This document shows positions 7,450 to 46,068 of a DNA stretch of 46,068 bases, in pieces (positions within the stretch are counted from its first letter, which is position 1; each line of letters begins with the position of its first letter). The notes under the pieces were generated by a model, which was not told the origin of the DNA, did no database searches, and worked only from the letters and a program-made list of their open reading frames with translations. The stretch lies in the NCBI GenBank assembly GCA_964596895.1, contig CAZQVZ010000001.1, positions 1 to 46,068 on the forward strand. Direction: 5' to 3'. The position numbers and the translations under genes were made by a program. The DNA is from an uncultured Myxococcaceae bacterium (GTDB lineage Bacteria; Myxococcota; Myxococcia; Myxococcales; Myxococcaceae).

Positions 7450-8334
7450 GTGACCGTCGGGTCCGCGCTGGGCCTGGTGCTGCTCGTTGCCGGCTGTCCC
7501 ACCGCTCCGCCACTCACCGCGCAGCCCTTGTGTGAGGGCCTCGTCTGTCCAAAGGCGCAGCGCTGCGTGGAGGGCAGGTGCCTGAGTTCCCAGTGCGGTG
7601 ACGTCTCTTGCGGCGCAGGCCAGGTCTGCGCGAGTGACACCTGCGTGGACGACGCCTGCATCGGCGTGCGCTGCGCGGAGGGTGAGCGTTGCCGGGCCGG
7701 CGTCTGCCGCGTGGTCCTCTGCGCGGCGAACACCGGCTGTCATCCCACCGAAGCGTGCGTGCAGGGGCGCTGCGCCCAGGATGCCTGCCTCGGCGTGCGC
7801 TGTGCGCCGGGGCTGGTCTGTCGCGAGGGCGGGTGCAGCGTGGTGACCTGCTCGCAGGATCTCGAATGTGGCGACGGCGAGGCCTGCGGCACCGACGGTC
7901 GCTGCGTGGTCACCGGCGGGTGCGCGGCGCTGGCGTGTCCTTCGAAGCAGGTGTGCCGAGACGGCGCGTGTGGGGTGACCGCGTGCCGCGCGGACCCAGA
8001 CTGTGCGCAGGCAGAGGTCTGTCGAGACGGCGCGTGCCTGGGCCAGGACGACGCCTGCGCGAACATCACGCCCTGTCCGCCCGGTCAGGTCTGCCGCAGC
8101 GGCGCCTGTGAGGCAGCCTCCTGCGGTCCCTCCCGGCCGTGCCTCGGCGCCGAACAATGCCGGGACGGGGTGTGCCAGCCGCCGCTCCTGCTCGAGCAGG
8201 CGACCCTGGCGCCGGCCGCGGGCGTGGTGGAGCTGGAAGGCGGCCTGCAGAGCTACGGCAGCCTCGGCGCCGGCGCCGTCGGTGAGACCGAAGTGGGAGG
8301 CGGACAGAAGACGCGGACTCAGACCGCGCCGTGA
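7450..8334 (+). CDS. Lipoprotein built from about 10 myxobacterial cysteine-rich repeats
   Basis: ...GSALGLVLLVAGC lipobox, followed by a reiterated roughly 20-aa unit C-x(2-6)-C-x(3-5)-[EQ]xC-xxGxC (e.g. CIGVRCAEGERCRAGVC, CLGVRCAPGLVCREGGC). Start is uncertain: GTG 7450 is used, and GTG 7309 would overlap the upstream gene. Confidence 0.75.
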   Translation: MTVGSALGLVLLVAGCPTAPPLTAQPLCEGLVCPKAQRCVEGRCLSSQCGDVSCGAGQVCASDTCVDDACIGVRCAEGERCRAGVCRVVLCAANTGCHPTEACVQGRCAQDACLGVRCAPGLVCREGGCSVVTCSQDLECGDGEACGTDGRCVVTGGCAALACPSKQVCRDGACGVTACRADPDCAQAEVCRDGACLGQDDACANITPCPPGQVCRSGACEAASCGPSRPCLGAEQCRDGVCQPPLLLEQATLAPAAGVVELEGGLQSYGSLGAGAVGETEVGGGQKTRTQTAP

Positions 8335-8690
8335 ACGGCCGGAGACGGCGGCCGAACCGCTGGCGCCTTCGCGAGCCGCACCAGCGCGTAGACGAGCAGC
8401 ACCGTCATCGCGATGTGGATGACCGTGCTCACCGCCGTCGCGCCGAGCTGGGCGGTGACGAGTGACTCCACGCCGCCGCGGCCGGCGAACCAGCTCGCCG
8501 CGTAGAAGAGCGCCTGGCCGAAGACCGACCACACCAACTCCATCACGCTCCACACCACCAGCGGCGCCGAGGCCTCGGGCCGGTGTCGGCGCACCACCGC
8601 CACCACCACGGCGAGCACCGCGATGCGCAGCAGCACGTTCACCAACCAGGAGACGCCCAGCCCCACCGAGTGCAGCGTCGTCACATCCAT
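8319..8690 (-). CDS. Small integral membrane protein (3-4 TM helices), hypothetical
   Basis: ATG at 8690 with GAGGAGG 7 nt upstream, 3 nt after the stop of the upstream CPBP gene. Hydrophobic helices throughout. Its 3' end overlaps the convergent gene by 16 nt. Confidence 0.6.
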   Translation of the reverse strand: MDVTTLHSVGLGVSWLVNVLLRIAVLAVVVAVVRRHRPEASAPLVVWSVMELVWSVFGQALFYAASWFAGRGGVESLVTAQLGATAVSTVIHIAMTVLLVYALVRLAKAPAVRPPSPAVHGAV

Positions 8691-8693
8691 GTC

Positions 8694-10034
8694 TCAACCT
8701 CCTCGAAGCAGCATCACCAGCGCCGCGGTCCCGTTCATCACCACGTGCAGGGCGATGGGCGCCTTGAGCCCACCGCTCGCCAACCTCGCCCAGCCGAGCA
8801 CCACGCCGTACCAGAGGATGAGCAGCACGAAGGCGCCGTAGTACAGGTGCAGCACCGCGAAGAGCGAGGCGGAGATGACCAGCGCCGCCACCTTCGGCAG
8901 AAAGCCTGCGAGCCACGGCAACACCGCGCCGCGGAACAAGAGCTCTTCGCCCATGGGTCCCAACACCACCACCGGCAGGATGAACAGGGCCCAGCCCAAC
9001 GGCCCCAACGGTCCCTGCGCCAGGGCGTGGAGCGGCGAGTCCCCGAACGGCGCCGGCGCAGCGTCCTGCGTGAGCGCGGTGAAGACGAGGACGCAGATGC
9101 CGACGCGCAGCGCGCCGGTGAGCCCATACAGCACGCCGAGCCCGACCGCGTGCGGCCAGGGGAGGGTGGGCGAGCGCTCGGCGCGGTGGCCCCAACCCTT
9201 GCGGCGCGCTCGGCGCCACAGCCAGAGCCCGCCGGCGATGAGCAGCACCGTCTGCGCGAGGACTCCGACGAGGAAGGTGCCCGCGGCCTGGCCGCCGATG
9301 AGCGTGCAGGTCAACAGCGACGCGCCGCTCGCGCCGGCGGAGACCCCCACCAGGAGCAGCGCCGCCCACAGCACCGTCGCGTCCATGCCGCGGCGCCGGC
9401 CCCAGGCGTAGAGCCCGAAGACCGCCAGCGCGCCGATGAGGGGAAAGATGAAGCCGCGTCGCAGGGGACCTCCCCCAGGTGCGCAGGTCGAGCCCGGGTC
9501 CGGCTCGAACAGGCCCCGGGTCACGTGGGCGCCGAGCGGGACTGCGACGCTGAGCAGGTCGCCTTCGCGCTCCACCTCGACCTGCACCGTGTCCCCAGGC
9601 GAATGCTCGGCGAGCCGCGCGCGCAGCTCCGCCAGGGTCGAGACCTGCTGCTCATCCACCCGCCGCACCACGTCACCCGCGCGCAGGCCCGCTGCTGCGG
9701 CCGCGCCGCCCGCGACGGCCTCCTCCAGCCTGGGCGGAGTCGAGCCCGCTTCAATCCGCACGCCCAGCGTCACCCGCGGCGCCGCCGAGCCCACAGCCAC
9801 CGGCTGCTGCGGCATTCCCCCCAACACGCTCACCAGGAGCAGCACCAGCACCACATCCAGGGTGAACAGCCCGAACAGCGCACGGGTCCACCGGCGGTGC
9901 GACGCGCGCTCGGCCTCGGGGACGCGCCGGTCGTACGCGGCGATGAGCGCGAGCGTCAGCGCCGCCGGCAGGCCCAGCCCCGGAACGAAGATGCCGCCCA
10001 GGGCGATGTGGAAGAACAGCCGGGCGCGGCTCAC
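8694..10034 (-). CDS. PDZ domain-containing CPBP (CAAX/Abi) family intramembrane glutamic endopeptidase
   Basis: PDZ-like segment GLRAGDVVRRVDEQQVSTLAELRARL...GDTVQVEVEREG lies between TM helices. The C-terminal CPBP motifs are GPMGEELLFRG and FAVLH...PIALHVVMN. The GTG start overlaps the upstream stop (GTGA). Confidence 0.85.
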   Translation of the reverse strand: MSRARLFFHIALGGIFVPGLGLPAALTLALIAAYDRRVPEAERASHRRWTRALFGLFTLDVVLVLLLVSVLGGMPQQPVAVGSAAPRVTLGVRIEAGSTPPRLEEAVAGGAAAAAGLRAGDVVRRVDEQQVSTLAELRARLAEHSPGDTVQVEVEREGDLLSVAVPLGAHVTRGLFEPDPGSTCAPGGGPLRRGFIFPLIGALAVFGLYAWGRRRGMDATVLWAALLLVGVSAGASGASLLTCTLIGGQAAGTFLVGVLAQTVLLIAGGLWLWRRARRKGWGHRAERSPTLPWPHAVGLGVLYGLTGALRVGICVLVFTALTQDAAPAPFGDSPLHALAQGPLGPLGWALFILPVVVLGPMGEELLFRGAVLPWLAGFLPKVAALVISASLFAVLHLYYGAFVLLILWYGVVLGWARLASGGLKAPIALHVVMNGTAALVMLLRGG

Positions 10035-38795: not shown

Positions 38796-39299
38796 GTGCG
38801 GGCCGCCGCTCTCCCGCGCCTGAGGGCGGCGGCGGTGAGAGCGGGCGTCCCGCGGCAGGCTCTCACTTCTCTTCATCCCCGGCTGCGTCGCCACGGGGCG
38901 TGCCGAAGGGGTTACCGCCAGGAGCAGCGTAACGTCCGGTACATCGTCCATGACGTCACGCGCTCGATCACCTTCTACACCTCGCACCTCGGCTTCACCC
39001 TGGAGGCACATCCGGCCCCGGGGTTTGCCATCGTCTCGCGGGGGGCGCTCAAGCTCTTCTTGAACCAACCCGGCACCGGCGGGACCGGGCAATCAATGCC
39101 GGACGGACGCGCGCCCGAGCCCGGCGGCTGGAACCGCATCCAGCTCCGGACGACAGACCTGGACGGCCTGGTGGAGGCGCTGCGAGCGGCCGGCGCCCGA
39201 TTCCGCATCGACATCGTGCAGGGAAATGGCGGCCGGCAGATTCTCCTCGAGGACCCCTCCGGCAACCCCATCGAGCTCCTGGAGCCGGTGGCGCGTTAG
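38796..39299 (+). CDS. VOC-family (glyoxalase/bleomycin-resistance/dioxygenase fold) protein. Start codon uncertain
   Basis: From about 38934 the frame reads VRYIVHDVTRSITFYTSHLGFTLE......FAIVSRG.LKLFLN.........GW.RIQL.T.DLD.LV..L...G..F.......G..GRQILLEDPSGNPIELLEP. The only in-frame ATG/GTG/TTG codons upstream are GTG 38796 and 38835, and the translation between them and the domain looks non-protein-like. Confidence 0.7.
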   Translation: MRAAALPRLRAAAVRAGVPRQALTSLHPRLRRHGACRRGYRQEQRNVRYIVHDVTRSITFYTSHLGFTLEAHPAPGFAIVSRGALKLFLNQPGTGGTGQSMPDGRAPEPGGWNRIQLRTTDLDGLVEALRAAGARFRIDIVQGNGGRQILLEDPSGNPIELLEPVAR

Positions 39300-39335
39300 C
39301 CGGCACCGCCGCAATCGGCGGAGCGAACATGGCCA

Positions 39336-40160
39336 TCAGGAGAGCTGCTGGTAGGCCGTTCCGAGCAACTGCACCGCGGCGCGGAGCGCCTGGGCTGCCG
39401 CCTCTGCCGTCTTGCGCCCGAGAAAGGGTATGGCCACCTCGCAACCGAGCTGGGCGTCGCCCGGAACGTCGGCAGGGACGAAGCGGCCCACCGGCGCCCA
39501 TCGCTGCAGCCGGTCGATGAAGCCGGCCGGCAGACGCGCGCGAAAGAGGCGTGGGTCGCCTTGGAGATGCGCGGCCACCCGCAGCCATCCGATGCCCAGG
39601 TGATAGACGTGGAAGTGCCCAACCACCCCCAGTCCGGGCAGCGGCATGTCGAACGCGCCATGACGGGCCGGGAGGCCGAGCGCTGCGAGCGCGGGGTCCA
39701 GTGAAACGCCGTCCGGGGCCCCCGGAAGCACCGGCGCCTGTCGGGAGTTGCCCGTGGGTCTACCCTGAACGTCCTCGGCGCAGGCCGCAAGGTGGGACAG
39801 CAGCGCGAGCAGGTTGCCTTCCCCGAGCACTGCGCCTTCCATGGGCAACGCCAAGGTCAGCTCGAGCTGCTGCCCGGGAGCATCGCCGGAGTACAGGCGG
39901 GCCGCGGGCAGCGGCGCCTGCTTGAGAAGACAGTCGGACGTCCCCAGGGTCTTGCCTGGGCCCAGCGGGTCAGAGACGGTCAGCCGCAGCGCGTTCGCCT
40001 CCAGCAGGGCGGTGTAGGCCGCGGGTGTCCGCCCCGGACCCGGTGACCACCGAAAGCCTGCGTAGAGCGTTCCTCTCGCCGAGGCCCGGACGTCGTACTT
40101 GAAGCCGCTGGCATCCAGGGCTTCGAACAACGGCGCGCTCGCCACGTCACTGGGTTTCAT
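39336..40160 (-). CDS. Hypothetical cytoplasmic protein, candidate immunity or chaperone partner of the upstream nuclease-domain protein
   Basis: ATG 40160 has a GGAG/GAGG-rich upstream sequence and overlaps the 3' end of the 860-aa gene by 14 nt. No signal peptide or TM helix. It looks like two similar halves. I recognise no catalytic motif. Confidence 0.6.
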   Translation of the reverse strand: MKPSDVASAPLFEALDASGFKYDVRASARGTLYAGFRWSPGPGRTPAAYTALLEANALRLTVSDPLGPGKTLGTSDCLLKQAPLPAARLYSGDAPGQQLELTLALPMEGAVLGEGNLLALLSHLAACAEDVQGRPTGNSRQAPVLPGAPDGVSLDPALAALGLPARHGAFDMPLPGLGVVGHFHVYHLGIGWLRVAAHLQGDPRLFRARLPAGFIDRLQRWAPVGRFVPADVPGDAQLGCEVAIPFLGRKTAEAAAQALRAAVQLLGTAYQQLS

Positions 40161-42729
40161 GTTCGCCTCGCTCTCCGGTGATGAAGGCGCCGGCCGGCCC
40201 CATGAACGTGCCCGGCGGTTTGACGGCGCCGTCCGGCCGCAGCATCACTCCGGGAATCTCACTGAGCGGGATGCTGTACTGAGGCAGCTGCGATTGGGTT
40301 CGGGTGTTGAGGGCAGGATCGTTCGGGATGCGCCAGGCGGCCACCGGCTCGCCGGCCGCGTTGGTCTCCACGAAGATGAACGCCCTCGGGATGGGCGTCT
40401 GGTTGGCGGTCTGCGAAGGTGTGCCCTCGTAGAGCGGTAGCTCCCGGTACCCGCCGCCGCGGCTGCGAATCGCCCGCACCAGATGGTTCCGGAGGAAGCT
40501 GTTCCAGAACCTCGCCTGCGGTGTGAAGTTGGACACGTCGGCGTTCGAGCTGCGGACGCCGGGCCCCTCCAGGCGGTCCACGTAGTCGATTCCGTGTCCC
40601 TTCTCGAAGAGCCGCCCCGTTCCATCCTCGAGGTAGGGGTTCTGGTCCCCCACGCCTCGGAGCTCCGGAGGGAGCCGGTTCTCTCCGCCCTGGTACGTAT
40701 CGTTCGGAGGACGGGTCATCGCTTCGCTCTGGAGGACGCGGTCTCCGGAGCGGACGTTGAAATTTATCTTCCCCTGGCCATCCGAGAAGATGCTGATTTC
40801 GAGCGGAACCTCGGGCGCGGTCGGCTCGCGGAAGACGGACCACTCCGGTCCCTGGCGGACCCAGTAGTGCCCTTCCGGCAGAACCGGAAGGCGCTCCGCC
40901 GGGAGCGCGTGGAAGTCGGCGAGGTTGCCGCGCACCTCTGGCGCGACCGAACGTCCACCGGGGCTGCCGCGCATCCCGCGCACCATGAGGATGATGCCGA
41001 CGAGCTGCAGGACGCCCGTGGTGCCGACCTCCCACTGCCCCTCCTCAGAGAGACCCAGCGGCGCGCCCGTCAGCAGCGACTCGTTGCGGCTTCCTTCAAT
41101 GATTCCGGAGATGCCGAGCGTGTCCAACGCGGCGACCATCGGGACCAGCATCAGCCGCCAGCGGTTGTCGGAGCGCCACGCTTCCACGAGGCGGGAACCG
41201 AAACTCATGACGTAGCCCGCCGCCAGCGCCACGGCGCCGACGACTAGCATCGCGGCGCCGAAGGCGATGGCGCCCTTCGCTGCGAGGACAATCAGCCCGG
41301 CCGCGGCGGCCATGACCAGGAGCGCGGCGCCGAACTTCGCCACAGACGTCATGACGCCTCTGGCCCACGGCGGCAGCTCGTTCCACCACCCGGAGATTGC
41401 GTCCGTCGCAGCATCTTCAAGCTCGATGAACGGTGTAAGGACACCACCGAGGAGCCGGGCCAGCGATGCCGTCAGCCCATCCAGCCAGCCAGGACGGGCG
41501 TCGGCGTCCGCCCTGTCCCGTTGCTGTGCGAGCCACGCAGCATCGGCAGAAAGCAAATAGCGCCGCAGGCTGTCGTACTGGTCGCCGGCGCTCAGGCGGG
41601 GGTCAAGGAACGCTGCGGATTCGGCGCTGCCCAGGAATGAGAGCCCGCCGGACCGCCCAAGGTTCGCCGCGGCGCCCCGGGCCTGCAGCGACAGAGACTC
41701 CCCTGCCGCCGCGTATTGGGCGAAGTACCCGGTGACAGGACCGCTGCCCTGGATCGAAGCGGTGACGTAGCCTGAATCCCCCCTCAGGTTGAGAAGCGCC
41801 TCGAAGGAGGGTTCCTCGCCGCCCAGCGCGCCCAGTTGGGCGGCCATGGTCCGGTCGCTGAAGAACACGCGCCCGTCAATTTCGACGGTGACGCTCCTCC
41901 CGTTCGCGTCGGTGTAGGAGACGGTCCGCGAATAGCGCAGCGTATAGGGGTAGGCGGGGCGGTCATCGACAGGACCGAGCCCGTACTCGGGATTCAGCTG
42001 GACGGTTGGAGGCCCCACCACGCCGACGCGCCTATCCGGTTGGTGGTCGAGGACGACGTGCGAATCACTCAGGATTTGCCCCCCATCGCCGGAGGCGGCG
42101 ACGGAGATGTCGTAGCTGGCCCGGGCTCCACCGTCGGCGTCCTGGCTCGCGCCGAACGAAAGGCGGCTCGAGCTCTCCGGGTGGGTCAGCCCCACCCGCT
42201 GCAGCCCTTGCACCTCCCTGTCGCTCTGGGATTGCAGGTCGGGAAACCACTGCTCCGGCCCATAGGCGAGCACCATCCCGCGAGGCGCCGACACCCGGGG
42301 ACGGTGCGGCAGTCCCGCCAGGATGCGGGCGGCGCCGTGGTCGGCGTCGTGTTCGAGCTGCTGCCGTGAGCCCGGCGGCGCATCTGCCCGGAACTGTGAG
42401 CGGTGCGCGGCTTCGTGGGCCAGGATGACGTCGCGGTCCAGACGGGTATGGACCCTGCTGGACAGCGTCGTTCTGCCATCCCGGGTCGTTGCCAGCGGCG
42501 ACGAAGAAGGCGCCCTTCGCCGCTGCGACCGGACTGTCTCGAACGAATGGAGAGCATGCGCTTGCGAGCGCGCGTCCGGAACCGCCGTGCGCGACGAGGT
42601 GTCAGGCGTCTCCTTCGAGTCGGCCGAGGACTTCCTGTGTGAAGGGGCAGCGAAGGGCATATCGGCACACGGTGGCTCTTCCGGCTTCAGGGCAGTCGAA
42701 CCGAAGGGCCGAGCCCGGAAACCCCGCAC
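40147..42729 (-). CDS. Polymorphic-toxin-like protein with an N-terminal DUF4157-like HExxH segment, a central TM-helix cluster and a C-terminal His-Me-finger (DNA/RNA non-specific endonuclease-like) domain
   Basis: SRVHT...VILAHEAAHRSQ (HEAAH at 42403-42417). Three or four TM helices (VMTSVAKFGAALLVMAAAAGLIVLAA..AIAFGAAMLVVGAVALAAGYV.., LMLVPMVAALDTLGISGII, TTGVLQLVGIILMV). C-terminus has LFEKGHGIDY...SNFTPQARFWNSFLRNHL (His codon at 40594-40596), comparable to Serratia-nuclease DRGH...SNITPQ...N..W..LE. Start is uncertain (GTG 42729 or ATG 42660). Confidence 0.7.
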   Translation of the reverse strand: MRGFRARPFGSTALKPEEPPCADMPFAAPSHRKSSADSKETPDTSSRTAVPDARSQAHALHSFETVRSQRRRAPSSSPLATTRDGRTTLSSRVHTRLDRDVILAHEAAHRSQFRADAPPGSRQQLEHDADHGAARILAGLPHRPRVSAPRGMVLAYGPEQWFPDLQSQSDREVQGLQRVGLTHPESSSRLSFGASQDADGGARASYDISVAASGDGGQILSDSHVVLDHQPDRRVGVVGPPTVQLNPEYGLGPVDDRPAYPYTLRYSRTVSYTDANGRSVTVEIDGRVFFSDRTMAAQLGALGGEEPSFEALLNLRGDSGYVTASIQGSGPVTGYFAQYAAAGESLSLQARGAAANLGRSGGLSFLGSAESAAFLDPRLSAGDQYDSLRRYLLSADAAWLAQQRDRADADARPGWLDGLTASLARLLGGVLTPFIELEDAATDAISGWWNELPPWARGVMTSVAKFGAALLVMAAAAGLIVLAAKGAIAFGAAMLVVGAVALAAGYVMSFGSRLVEAWRSDNRWRLMLVPMVAALDTLGISGIIEGSRNESLLTGAPLGLSEEGQWEVGTTGVLQLVGIILMVRGMRGSPGGRSVAPEVRGNLADFHALPAERLPVLPEGHYWVRQGPEWSVFREPTAPEVPLEISIFSDGQGKINFNVRSGDRVLQSEAMTRPPNDTYQGGENRLPPELRGVGDQNPYLEDGTGRLFEKGHGIDYVDRLEGPGVRSSNADVSNFTPQARFWNSFLRNHLVRAIRSRGGGYRELPLYEGTPSQTANQTPIPRAFIFVETNAAGEPVAAWRIPNDPALNTRTQSQLPQYSIPLSEIPGVMLRPDGAVKPPGTFMGPAGAFITGERGEHETQ

Positions 42730-42813
42730 ATTCTACGAACCGCACGCACTCTACCCGAGGCGGCCCTTGCTGCGAGTGCGTCGCACATTGCATCCGAGCT
42801 GCGCGTCGTGCGC

Positions 42814-45015
42814 CTACCTCCGGCTCACCACCGCGGCTCGAGCCTCGCCGCCCGCAGGCGCCGCAGGCCGCGGACTGAACCCCACCGCTGCCCGGCGATT
42901 CTCCGGCTTCTGTCGCCACTCGTCCTTCAGTCGCTCCAGCACCGTCCACGCGTCCTTCGGCGCACCGAGCAGCGGCGCCTGGCGCAGCACGGTGCGGAAG
43001 TCACCGGGCGTGAGCCCCTCCAGCGCGTCCAGAGATGCGCGCAGGGCTCGTGCATCCACGACCTCCACCGCCAGCTCACGCAGCGTCGCCCCGAAGAGCG
43101 CCCAGCGCTGTGGCGACGTCGGCGGCTCGAACCGCAGCTTCAAGGAGAAGCGCCGCAGGGCCGCCGGGTCCAGCGTGTCGAAGTCATTGGTGGCGCAGAG
43201 GAAGAGCCCGTCGAAGACCTCCATCTGAACAAGGAGCTCATTGACCTGGGTGACCTCCCAGGACTGCCGCGCCGAGGCCCGGTCGCGCAGGAAGCCGTCC
43301 GCCTCATCCAGGAGCAGCACCGCACCTTCGTCACGCGCGCGAGCGAACATGCCCGCGAGGTTCGCCTCCGTCTGTCCCACGTAGCAGCCGAGCAGGTCCG
43401 ATGCGCGCTGAAGCTGCAGCGGCCGCCCAAGCACCTCCGCCAGGTGGTGCGCGAACGCGGTCTTCCCGGTGCCCGGCGGGCCGGACATGCACAGCGTCGC
43501 CCACGGATGGGCGACCAGCCGCTCCACCAGCGCCGGCAGCGAACAGCCCGCGACGTTCACGTAGGACAGCGCGTACGCCGGCCCATCCGAAAGCTGCGTC
43601 CTTCGCGCCGGACCCTGCGTCCGAAGCGAGGCCTCCAGCGCGCGCGTGAGCAATTCGCCCCGCGCCTCCATGGAGTCTGGCCGCACCAGCCCACACAGCC
43701 TTCCCGCGCGGGCGATGTGCGCGGGCGTGAGCCGTTCGTCCGCCGAAATGCGCCGCAGCACGTCCGGAGACAGCGCGTCCTCACCGAGCGTCCGGCGCAG
43801 CAGCGCGGCGCGGGCGCGCGCGGGCGGGGCACGCAGCTCCAACAGGTAGTCGAAGCGGCGCAGGAACGCCGGGTCCATCCGCGAGATGTCGTTGCAGACC
43901 CAGATGGCCGGCACCGGGTTCTCCTCCAGGAGCCGGTTCACCCACGCCTTGCCCACCACCTGCTCGCGCGGCGCTCCGAGCGGATCTCCGAACACGTCCT
44001 CCACCTCGTCGAAGAAGACGAGGGCCCGACCCCCGTGACCGCGCCCCACCACCCGCTGACACAGCAGGTATGCGCCGAAGCGCCGGCCCGGCGGCAGCGC
44101 AGAGCCATCGCCCGCTTCGTCCGCGACCTCGTACAACCGAGCATCGACAGCGCCCGCGAGCACCCGCGCCAGCTCCGACTTGCCGGTGCCGGGCCGGCCG
44201 TGGACGAGCACGTTCACGCCGCGGGCTCTCCGCTCCAGCGCCGCGCTGAGCAGCCGCCGCAGGGCATGCAGGTCCGCAGCGACGTGCGAGAAGTCCTCCA
44301 CGCCGCACGACGCCGGGCGCTGCGGCCGGAAGAAGTGGTGGAGCAGCGCCTGCGAACCTGCGTGCCGTGTGAGCAACAGCCGCGTCAGCCCGTTGGCTGG
44401 GCGCAGAGGCGGATCTCGGTGACGCTCCGGATCGCTCAGGAGCAGGAGCCGTCCGCGCAGCAGCGTTCCGTCCGGCCCCAAGGCAGAGATGACCGCGCGC
44501 GCCGGCAGGTGCAGCAGCTTCGCGACAACCGAGGCCACCTGCGGCGTGGACCAGACCTCCACGTGCTCCATCAGCTCGTGCAAGGGCGTCGAGACCTCCA
44601 GCGCCACCGCGAACAGCAGCAACTCGCGCTCCACTTCAGAGAGCCCCAGCGCGTCACCCAGAGAGGCCAGGTTCTCGAACGGCTCGCCCTTCCGCCGCCC
44701 CGGCCGCTTCTCCGCCTTCACCCACGCGCGGTGGAACACCGACCGGCAGGCTTCTTTGGGCAGGTCCTTCCACTCCAGGTCACGCGGGATGGCGAGCTGC
44801 CGGCGCAGGTCTTCGTCCAGGCGGCCGCCCACGTGGTGCTGCCACAGGTCCAGCTCCACCAGGCCGCGCAGGCACCACAGCGAGATGGTCCGGTCGAGCG
44901 CAGCGTCGCCGGAGCGGTTTGAGAGCTTCGAAGTCATCTTCGGGTCCGCGGACGCGGTGCGCCGCGCGCGACTGACGGCCATCAGCCGCGCTCGCGGATG
45001 ACCATCCGTGGCCAT
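42814..45015 (-). CDS. Tandem-AAA+ ATPase (two classic-clade AAA modules, CDC48/Afp15-like architecture)
   Basis: D1: VLVHGRPGTGKSELA (Walker A), LVFFDEVEDVF (Walker B), NDISRMDPAFLRRF. D2: LCMSGPPGTGKTAFA, VLLLDEADGFL, ATNDFDTLDPAALRRFSLKL. About 260-aa N-terminal domain of unknown type. ATG 45015 (alternatives 44982 and 44937). Confidence 0.85.
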   Translation of the reverse strand: MATDGHPRARLMAVSRARRTASADPKMTSKLSNRSGDAALDRTISLWCLRGLVELDLWQHHVGGRLDEDLRRQLAIPRDLEWKDLPKEACRSVFHRAWVKAEKRPGRRKGEPFENLASLGDALGLSEVERELLLFAVALEVSTPLHELMEHVEVWSTPQVASVVAKLLHLPARAVISALGPDGTLLRGRLLLLSDPERHRDPPLRPANGLTRLLLTRHAGSQALLHHFFRPQRPASCGVEDFSHVAADLHALRRLLSAALERRARGVNVLVHGRPGTGKSELARVLAGAVDARLYEVADEAGDGSALPPGRRFGAYLLCQRVVGRGHGGRALVFFDEVEDVFGDPLGAPREQVVGKAWVNRLLEENPVPAIWVCNDISRMDPAFLRRFDYLLELRAPPARARAALLRRTLGEDALSPDVLRRISADERLTPAHIARAGRLCGLVRPDSMEARGELLTRALEASLRTQGPARRTQLSDGPAYALSYVNVAGCSLPALVERLVAHPWATLCMSGPPGTGKTAFAHHLAEVLGRPLQLQRASDLLGCYVGQTEANLAGMFARARDEGAVLLLDEADGFLRDRASARQSWEVTQVNELLVQMEVFDGLFLCATNDFDTLDPAALRRFSLKLRFEPPTSPQRWALFGATLRELAVEVVDARALRASLDALEGLTPGDFRTVLRQAPLLGAPKDAWTVLERLKDEWRQKPENRRAAVGFSPRPAAPAGGEARAAVVSRR

Positions 45016-45091
45016 ATGTGACCTTCATCGTCACGCGTTGACCCGCCCAATGACGCCGGGATAGACCCGCTCGAACCTTCCGGGGAGCCGC

Positions 45092-46068
45092 ATGGAATTC
45101 AAGATCGCCGCCGACGAGCTGAAGAAGGCCCTCTACCGGGCGCAGGGCATCGTGGAGCGCAAGACCACCATGCCCATCCTCGCCAACGTCCTCATCAACG
45201 CCACCAGGACCGGCGTCTCGGTGACCGCGTTCGACCTGGACATCGGCGTGGTCAGCGAGCACCCCGCGGAGGTGATGAAGCCGGGCGCGGTGACGGTCTC
45301 CGCCAAGTACGTCTTCGACATCGTGCAGAACGCGCCGGACGCGCACCTGACGCTCAAGCGCCTGCAGAACAACTACGTGGAGATCACCTCCGGCCCCTCG
45401 CACTTCAAGATCGTGGGCATGGCGCCGGAGGAGTACCCGAAGCTCCCGAAGGAGGAGAACGCGGAGCTGGTGAAGGTGAACGGCGGCATTCTCCTGGAGA
45501 TGATCAAGCGGACGCAGTTCGCCATCTCCACCGATGAGACCCGCTACATCCTGAACGGCGTCTTCTTCGAGCCGCGCGAAGGTGGGCAGACCCGCATGGT
45601 CGCCACCGACGGGCACCGGCTGGCGCTGGTGGAGCGCGCCATGGAGGGAGACTTCAAGCTCAAGAGCGGCGTCATCATCCCGCGCAAGGGCCTCTTCGAG
45701 CTCAAGCGCCTCCTGGACGAAGCGCCAGACGCGGAGTGCCACCTGGGGTTCGCGGAGAACTCGGCGCTCTTCAAGAAGCCCGGCCTCACCATGGTGATGC
45801 GGCTCATCGACGGGCAGTTCCCCGAGTACCAGCGCGTCATTCCCAAGGAGGGCGAGAAGCAGGTGACCCTGCCTCGCATCCGCTTCCTCGAAGGCCTGCG
45901 CCGCATCGCGCTGCTCTCCGCGGACAAGTCCAACGCGGTGAAGGTGCGCCTGTCCGACAACCTGCTGCGCATCACCTCGCACAACCCGGACCTCGGCGAA
46001 GCGCGGGACGACATCGACTGCACCTACCGCGGCGCGGAGCTCACGGTGGGCTTCAACGCGCGCTACCT
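45092..46068 (+). CDS. dnaN: DNA polymerase III beta sliding clamp DnaN, N-terminal about 325 codons (3' end lies outside the window)
   Basis: Not in the ORF track because it is open-ended. ATG 45092 with GGGGAG 4 nt upstream. The frame reads MEFKIAADELKKALYRAQGIVERKTTMPILANVLINA...FDLDIG...QFAISTDETRYILNGVFFE......MVATDGHRLA..E........GVIIPRKG..ELKRLL......FKKPGLTMVMRLIDGQFPEYQRVIP, a classic DnaN sequence. Confidence 0.95.
   Translation, partial: MEFKIAADELKKALYRAQGIVERKTTMPILANVLINATRTGVSVTAFDLDIGVVSEHPAEVMKPGAVTVSAKYVFDIVQNAPDAHLTLKRLQNNYVEITSGPSHFKIVGMAPEEYPKLPKEENAELVKVNGGILLEMIKRTQFAISTDETRYILNGVFFEPREGGQTRMVATDGHRLALVERAMEGDFKLKSGVIIPRKGLFELKRLLDEAPDAECHLGFAENSALFKKPGLTMVMRLIDGQFPEYQRVIPKEGEKQVTLPRIRFLEGLRRIALLSADKSNAVKVRLSDNLLRITSHNPDLGEARDDIDCTYRGAELTVGFNARY

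Follow-up and report, generated by a model that had tools for sequence, protein, structure and literature searches.

The ATPases that load cargo into extracellular contractile injection systems (eCIS), namely Pvc15, Afp15 and Alg15/Cis15, are proteins of about 700 amino acids (aa) in which an N-domain is followed by two AAA modules, D1 and D2. In Pvc15, D1 is degenerate and D2 is the catalytic ring (PMC11495950), and eCIS ATPases act on disordered leaders of their cargo (bioRxiv 10.64898/2026.05.27.728243). On the cargo side, the effector Tme of the contractile injection system (CIS) of Streptomyces davawensis combines DUF4157, transmembrane (TM) helices and an EndA-like nuclease (PMC11126660). 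How cargo is chosen and loaded is an active question, which matters for the engineering of protein-delivery tools. Here, we analyzed a stretch of 46,068 nucleotides from an uncultured Myxococcaceae bacterium (assembly GCA_964596895.1, contig CAZQVZ010000001.1), referred to as the window, in which a gene for a tandem AAA+ ATPase lies directly upstream of a gene for an eCIS-cargo-like toxin and of a gene for the toxin's partner. This ATPase is a member of a separate family. We consider it fairly probable that it is not the loader of the toxin but happens to stand beside an orphan eCIS cargo cassette, and that the pairing does not represent a conserved module.

The locus consists of three tightly packed open reading frames (ORFs) on the minus strand, with the following features:

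42814-45015, minus strand: tandem AAA+ ATPase of 733 aa with the layout N-domain, D1, D2 and with intact motifs in both rings
44368-44727, minus strand: N-terminal winged-helix-like domain of the ATPase, residues ~97-216, located with PF22977 and hhalign
43576-44268, minus strand: AAA module D1 (residues ~250-480; Walker A, GRPGTGKS; Walker B, FFDEVED; arginine finger, RRF)
42817-43530, minus strand: classic AAA module D2 (residues ~496-733), including the lid and the C-terminal helices; motifs GPPGTGKT, LLLDEAD and RRF, and a YVG pore loop
42730-42813, minus strand: spacer of 84 bp from the ATPase stop to the first possible start of the toxin (GTG 42729)
40147-42729, minus strand: eCIS-cargo-like toxin of 860 aa, co-directional with the ATPase and downstream of it
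39336-40160, minus strand: partner of 274 aa and probable immunity protein, whose ORF has its first 14 bp in common with the end of the toxin ORF

An earlier reading of the DNA (the sequence-only reading) had described a tandem-AAA ATPase, co-directional with a toxin-like ORF and 84 bp upstream of it, and the ORF positions, Pfam matches and motifs agree with this description. The gap between the two genes becomes 153 bp if the toxin starts at ATG 42660, as in the database's 837-aa version of the protein (P0121).

Architecture of the window ATPase

The window ATPase resembles the eCIS loaders in its size of ~700 aa, in the succession of N-domain, D1 and D2, and in a D2 that carries GxxGTGK[ST], a DE(A)D Walker B motif and an RR finger. 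Its gene also directly precedes a gene for eCIS-type cargo. In contrast to the loaders, D1 retains Walker A, Walker B and arginine fingers, and the gene lies outside of an eCIS operon. Pfam AAA (PF00004) matches the protein over two stretches (E 1.2e-33), with the match on D2 covering residues 508-630. Walker A is represented by GRPGTGKS (residue 273) and GPPGTGKT (residue 512), Walker B by ALVFFDEVE (331) and AVLLLDEAD (565), and the RR(F) arginine fingers at residues 386-388 and 621-623 are invariant among 40 homologues. D1 is without an obvious aromatic pore loop. Since homologues align only from residues 14-49 onward, the true start of the protein may be the ATG at 44937 (M27).

The nearest solved structures are those of VAT, Cdc48/p97, NVL and AFG2 (E 1e-23 with the single sequence, 1e-49 with a profile). 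With these type II unfoldases and with Msm0858 of Mycolicibacterium smegmatis, the window ATPase has two stacked AAA rings, the second region of homology and the D2 pore-loop motif in common. Its N-domain, unlike theirs, is a PF22977-like winged-helix variant and not of the Cdc48 type. The PF22977 match itself (E 3.2e-4, 20.8 bits; 23 bits in the genome scan) is below the cut-off of 27 bits, and this family is not exclusive to eCIS, as it also matches two control genomes. Our literature search retrieved no paper that mentions PF22977, and a search for reports on orphan Afp15 proteins or effectors retrieved nothing relevant.

A family distantly related to the eCIS loaders

Over its full length, the window ATPase is 36-50% identical to more than 100 homologues of ~650-750 aa, all of which have two intact P-loops; the alignments with P0001, P0002, P0011 and four further relatives extend over 579-720 residues (36-50% identity). 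We named this hitherto unnamed family of proteins of ~700 aa with both rings intact W-type. D1 is intact in the window ATPase and in all 40 aligned W-type homologues, and 51 columns, including both P-loops, are invariant across 40 W-type sequences. A search with the N-domain of the window ATPase alone identified 258 cluster representatives, the majority with a length of ~650-750 aa and the remainder shorter.

For the comparison, the eCIS type was defined by ATPases encoded inside eCIS loci and not by the Pvc15 and Afp15 sequences themselves. In BLAST searches against four eCIS-linked ATPases (C56, L030, L032 and L038), the window ATPase aligned over single AAA modules only (for D2, 31-37% over 134-183 aa), while alignments among these four extend up to the full length. 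A fifth eCIS-linked ATPase (L127) aligns with the window ATPase over 232 D2 residues, compared to 610 aa with the ATPase of contig C56, which belongs to the eCIS of the same assembly (see below). In each of the five eCIS-linked ATPases examined, Walker A occurs once, in D2, and is missing from D1. In a maximum-likelihood tree (IQ-TREE, 57 sequences), the 5 eCIS-linked proteins are separated from the 52 W-type proteins by a long branch with 100/100 support, and the window ATPase is nested in the W-type group as sister to P0001/P0002 (100/98).

The two families are nevertheless related. In a profile-profile comparison, they are colinear over 585 columns (E 3e-42), and hhalign connects the N-domains alone with a probability of 95.8% (E 7.8e-9) and the D1 modules alone with 92.7%, versus less than 0.3% in mismatched-domain controls. 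Judging from these profiles, the N-domains are homologous but divergent, and W-type is a distant sister family of the cargo-loading ATPases Pvc15, Afp15 and Alg15, in which D1 has decayed. Loaders of the Cis15 type thus have a large uncharacterized sister family with a D1 that is active by its motifs, a plausible ancestor or reservoir.

The sequence-only reading had likened the ATPase to the Afp15/Pvc15 type. Taken literally, this would make it an eCIS ATPase whose gene was relocated from the vicinity of the structural genes. Although the N-D1-D2 layout, the weak PF22977 match and the "DEAD" Walker B motif in D2, as in Pvc15 (PMC11495950), are in line with such an origin, the ATPase falls into a separate clade, its D1 is intact rather than degenerate, the eCIS of the assembly has an ATPase of its own on C56, and W-type proteins are present in genomes without eCIS. 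We therefore abandoned this assignment, and a relocated loader appears extremely improbable. The opposite possibility raised by the same reading, namely that the ATPase is phylogenetically unrelated to CIS-associated ATPases, holds insofar as the clades differ and does not hold insofar as the N-domain still links them distantly. A chimeric ATPase with a W-type N-terminus and an eCIS-type C-terminus was rejected, as the W-type alignment reaches residue 726 and the C-terminal motifs (LTPGDF) are those of W-type.

The injection system of the same genome

The window comprises an entire contig (C1), the longest one in the bin. The source is a metagenome-assembled genome (MAG) of 6.2 Mb in 732 contigs, 84% complete with 3.9% contamination and a G+C (GC) content of ~70%, and its closest protein matches are to Myxococcota. 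The sequence-only reading had noted that sheath, tube and baseplate genes are missing from the window and that a machine may be encoded elsewhere. Both statements proved correct: a profile search of the whole assembly identified eCIS genes on C197 and C56, and the matches, including the cap, are all located there and none on the 46-kb contig C1. C197 (L016:1-10480, 10.5 kb) encodes a Pvc16_N cap, two sheaths, two gp19-type tubes, a CIS_tube protein and a DUF4157 protein. C56 (L019:1-19960, 20 kb) encodes, on a single strand, a VgrG-like protein, a spike, a TM protein of 756 aa, Baseplate_J, an Afp12-like protein of 760 aa, an ATPase of 671 aa and two fibre-like proteins of 507 and 1179 aa. The eCIS locus is hence split over two contigs of the same assembly. 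The C56 ATPase (7985-10000, minus strand) matches PF22977 above the cut-off (38.7 bits) and has a single Walker A motif in D2; according to these motifs, it is a canonical loader-type ATPase with a degenerate D1 as reported for Pvc15 (PMC11495950).

DUF4157 (PF13699) was detected in this genome on C516, C322 and C197 and not on C1. The DUF4157 cargo gene of C197 is adjoined by an LGT-like gene (prolipoprotein diacylglyceryl transferase, PF01790; C197:689-1951, minus strand), and the same neighbourhood was seen in L038 (L038:14760-15902). L038 is an unrelated eCIS locus, and the LGT-like gene may be a recurrent accessory gene.

Distribution and neighbours of W-type ATPases

To assess the genomic context of the family, we inspected 80 W-type loci from species-representative genomes with flanks of up to 10 kb, using BLAST and purpose-built hidden Markov models (HMMs). 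As a positive control, the HMMs detected each of the three DUF4157 genes in the window's own genome. eCIS proteins, DUF4157, the toxin and the partner were absent from all of these loci, so that a co-occurrence of the ATPase family with DUF4157 proteins, which the sequence-only reading had proposed to examine, was not observed. Likewise, genes for eCIS proteins or DUF4157 are absent from the 8-10 kb around the closest W-type homologues (43-50% identity). Among 40 relatives, 10 carry an eCIS cap and 5 a W-type ATPase, with both present in a single one. eCIS markers were absent from 6 of 10 W-type-carrying genomes that were checked; a W-type ATPase without cap or DUF4157 is found in the near-complete relatives G028, G036 and G039 and in Ottowia, Hydrogenophaga and Rheinheimera. 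The W-type family is thus not tied to eCIS.

Clustering of the six-frame ORFs around the 80 loci, which is noisy owing to spurious ORFs in high-GC DNA, revealed the housekeeping genes PEPCK and MetH as the only recurrent neighbours, which reflects synteny in Comamonadaceae. In one myxobacterial lineage, GrpE and DnaK are encoded two genes upstream of the W-type ATPase (L005:6036-12127), and in another lineage a close W-type homologue forms a row with HSP20 and Lon (L137:4997-10094). These neighbours weakly suggest a general role of the family in protein remodelling or proteostasis. W-type proteins are widespread, mostly chromosomal type II AAA+ ATPases with a winged-helix N-domain and two motif-keeping rings, and the window ATPase would be a hexameric unfoldase that serves proteostasis or a general purpose.

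Two further settings were found for W-type homologues of lower similarity (37-39% identity). In one genome, genes for an SNF2 helicase and for a SWIM protein come after the ATPase gene (L025:11401-15255), and in two other genomes the ATPase is located beside a conserved vWA-domain protein (L026:6286-7842 and L027:10959-12883).

The toxin and its partner

The toxin is rare, with 16 homologues (41-66% identity) among 5.8 billion proteins and none in the 40 relatives. According to an alignment of its family and to a structure predicted with AlphaFold (mean predicted local distance difference test score, pLDDT, 71.6), it is composed of a disordered leader (residues 1-76), a beta domain (187-345) and TM helices (381-586), followed by a C-terminal domain with the NucA/EndA-like motif KGH..DY...NFTPQ..WN..RN. 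Nucleases of the NucA/EndA type (beta-beta-alpha-Me) are marked by a catalytic His in [DE][RK]GH and a Mg-binding Asn in N-x-[TV]-P-Q; in the toxin family, KGH (H712) and NFTPQ (N734) show no variation across 16-17 sequences. Foldseek with a model of the C-terminal domain alone ranked NucA from Anabaena first without reaching significance (E 0.27-0.49); Pfam gave no match for this domain, a profile search with it against PDB sequences yielded only chance-level matches, and Foldseek with the whole toxin against the PDB yielded nothing at E <0.1. We take the C-terminus to be a putative NucA/EndA-like nuclease on account of its motif.

The sequence-only reading had called the toxin DUF4157-like. 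The label rests on a motif only, namely an HEAAH half-motif of DUF4157 at residue ~105, near-invariant in the family and embedded in a conserved "LAxTxDGxT...ILAHExxHRxQF...LExDA" element; DUF4157 itself has its HExxH core flanked by xAxTxG...LLAHE and ExEAD. PF13699 does not match the toxin even at E 10. In hhalign, the HExxH element resembles the C-terminal half of DUF4157 weakly (P 1.3e-3, probability 18%). Other members of the toxin family go further: P0127 has a genuine PF13699 domain at its N-terminus, and P0128 the usual cargo leader. A local BLAST alignment of the toxin with the cargo candidate on C322 of its own genome reached 38% identity over 63 aa. This candidate of 1167-1201 aa (C322:1190-4795, minus strand) contains an extra truncated "RLDARAVLAHERAH" element ~140 residues before its full DUF4157 domain, similar to the half-motif in the toxin of the window.

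The closest characterized protein is Tme (PMC11126660), with which the toxin shares the disordered leader, the HExxH element, the TM helices and the C-terminal [DK][RK]GH / N..PQ motif, as well as homologues that are encoded in eCIS loci. The toxin differs from Tme in its size (860 compared to ~2250 aa), in that no tape-measure-like region was seen and PF13699 is undetected, and in the dedicated partner gene that follows. A homologue of this 274-aa partner is located 3' of the toxin in every locus read, even where only the C-terminal nuclease domain is shared, which fits its probable role as an immunity protein.

Toxin homologues at eCIS loci

In six loci (L030, L038, L127, L128, L132 and L134), an eCIS-type ATPase is encoded directly upstream of a toxin with the same C-terminal domain. 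In L032, the toxin is convergent with the eCIS ATPase at the end of the eCIS operon, and in L037 it lies inside the eCIS operon. It stands alone only in Aliiglaciecola and in the P0122 locus, which are orphan cassettes without any ATPase. As the homologues are located at the ends of eCIS operons, in most cases with the eCIS ATPase as their immediate upstream neighbour, we assign the toxin and its partner to eCIS-type cargo; together they form a rare eCIS cargo cassette. That this Tme-like nuclease cargo, rare as it is, almost always follows directly behind a loader gene argues for selection on adjacency. The view of the locus as an orphan cargo module serving a machine encoded elsewhere, put forward in the sequence-only reading, is therefore retained for toxin and partner, with an eCIS present on C197 and C56, and dropped for the ATPase, which is not of the loader type.

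The toxin homologue of the gammaproteobacterium Aliiglaciecola is 57% identical to the window toxin. Toxin and partner with 57-63% identity to the window's copy (GC 68%) occur in L031 (Aliiglaciecola sp. SL4, GC 42%) and in L030 (GC 45%). These low-GC, Gammaproteobacteria-like contigs suggest a horizontal spread of the cassette across phyla. At L030, the 10-kb flanks on both sides contain no eCIS structural genes. The eCIS-type ATPase gene of this locus is directly preceded by a Peptidase_S8 gene, an arrangement (L030:4985-9735) that recalls the ATPase-protease pairing of IetAS.

The anti-phage system IetAS also enters into another explanation, according to which the three genes act without any injection machine, either with the ATPase extracting or activating a membrane-inserting nuclease or as a three-gene defence or abortive-infection module. 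D2 of the window ATPase does score against the IetA/IteA models of PADLOC and NCBIfam (E 1e-34 to 1e-37), and the Aliiglaciecola toxin and partner are located away from any visible eCIS. However, the IetA score is 118 bits compared to a cut-off of 510 bits and derives mainly from the AAA module, an IetS-like protease is missing from the neighbourhood, and the window ATPase differs from IetA/IteA as a tandem AAA protein with a winged-helix N-domain. We thus rejected it as an IetA-type defence ATPase. Considering also that eCIS loci harbour the majority of the toxin homologues and that the genome itself has an eCIS, a stand-alone unfoldase-toxin system is improbable.

A variable island between M16 peptidase and dnaN

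The cassette and the ATPase are located in the interval between the M16 peptidase genes and dnaN, where they are flanked by two genes:

38796-39299, plus strand: VOC/glyoxalase-fold gene at the far end of the variable island
45092 onward, plus strand: dnaN, flanking the ATPase side

In both genomes of the same genus (L045 in G002 and L046 in G001), this interval contains two unrelated genes, encoding a membrane protein of ~400 aa and a lipoprotein of ~620 aa. The window instead holds four genes, namely those for the VOC protein, the partner, the toxin and the ATPase. The interval is thus a replacement hot-spot within the genus. The ATPase and the toxin are both absent from the two same-genus genomes. 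The ATPase is therefore not a housekeeping neighbour of dnaN, contrary to a possibility that the sequence-only reading had left open, and the island content differs in both genomes.

Given a MAG that is fragmented into 732 contigs, the junction of ATPase and toxin might have arisen as a chimeric join during metagenome assembly. We regard such an artefact as very improbable, since the junction lies on the longest contig of the bin, the GC content is even across it, and the M16 peptidase and dnaN flanks match those of the same-genus genomes in order and orientation.

A consensus scan of positions 39000-45300 for promoters and terminators revealed one promoter-like site, which lies inside the toxin gene. 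In the spacer (42730-42813), neither a promoter-like nor a terminator-like site was found, although such a scan is uninformative at 70% GC.

Relation of the ATPase to the cargo cassette

In our preferred reading, the toxin and its partner are an orphan cassette that elsewhere is placed directly behind the own ATPase of an eCIS, and the toxin would most likely be loaded into the C197/C56 eCIS by the ATPase of C56. Of the toxin loci read, that of the window is the only one with a W-type ATPase beside the toxin. Should this adjacency be a coincidence, the locus would amount to an ordinary AAA+ gene with an ordinary orphan cargo cassette as its neighbour. Several points weigh against this reading. 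A random relocation would rarely yield a co-directional cassette 84 bp behind such an ATPase, which occupies the exact slot of the eCIS ATPases in six other loci and is the only other ATPase of the genome with the loader layout N-D1-D2 and a homologous N-domain. Because both are missing from the same-genus genomes and share one variable island, ATPase and cassette may have arrived together. Furthermore, we infer that C56 and C197 belong to the same organism from their similar GC content and from the presence of the cap in the same-genus genome G001, and the proteostasis role of W-type draws on just two gene contexts.

These points lead to the alternative of a co-option, in which a W-type protein replaced the eCIS-type ATPase and is now dedicated to unfolding, loading or solubilizing this TM-containing cargo, which then enters the eCIS encoded elsewhere. 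Position and orientation match the canonical arrangement of the six loci, homology to eCIS loaders extends over the N-domain and the colinear succession N-D1-D2, and the 76-residue disordered leader of the toxin is of the kind on which eCIS ATPases act (bioRxiv 10.64898/2026.05.27.728243). The joint presence of ATPase, toxin and partner in an island that the same-genus genomes lack is in agreement with this, as is the failure to find a terminator-like site between ATPase and toxin. On the other hand, the pairing is a single case: more than 85 W-type loci have no such cargo, and no W-type ATPase was found in the other toxin loci read. In addition, the eCIS of this genome already has an intact loader on C56, and orphan cassettes without ATPase exist (Aliiglaciecola, P0122 locus). 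We consider co-option possible but unlikely. Its most far-reaching form, in which a double-active, housekeeping-type sister of the loaders was recruited for an orphan TM nuclease cargo, would be a natural non-orthologous replacement at the ATPase position of an ATPase-cargo-immunity arrangement; we judge this to be doubtful. If true, such a recruitment would imply that cargo recognition resides in the shared winged-helix N-domain and is transferable to ATPases outside of eCIS operons. A sister-family ATPase at the position of the loader in one genome offers a natural test of whether ATPases of this family can handle eCIS cargo.

Sequence composition also bears on the choice between an orphan cassette beside an unrelated ATPase gene and a joint history, and the somewhat different codon usage of ATPase and toxin speaks against co-option. 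Toxin and partner have a GC content at third codon positions (GC3) of 0.82 and a codon-usage distance, calculated from relative synonymous codon usage (RSCU), at the 89th-92nd percentile, compared to a GC3 of 0.875 and the 75th percentile for the ATPase. The greater atypicality of toxin and partner mildly favours separate histories of the cassette and the ATPase.

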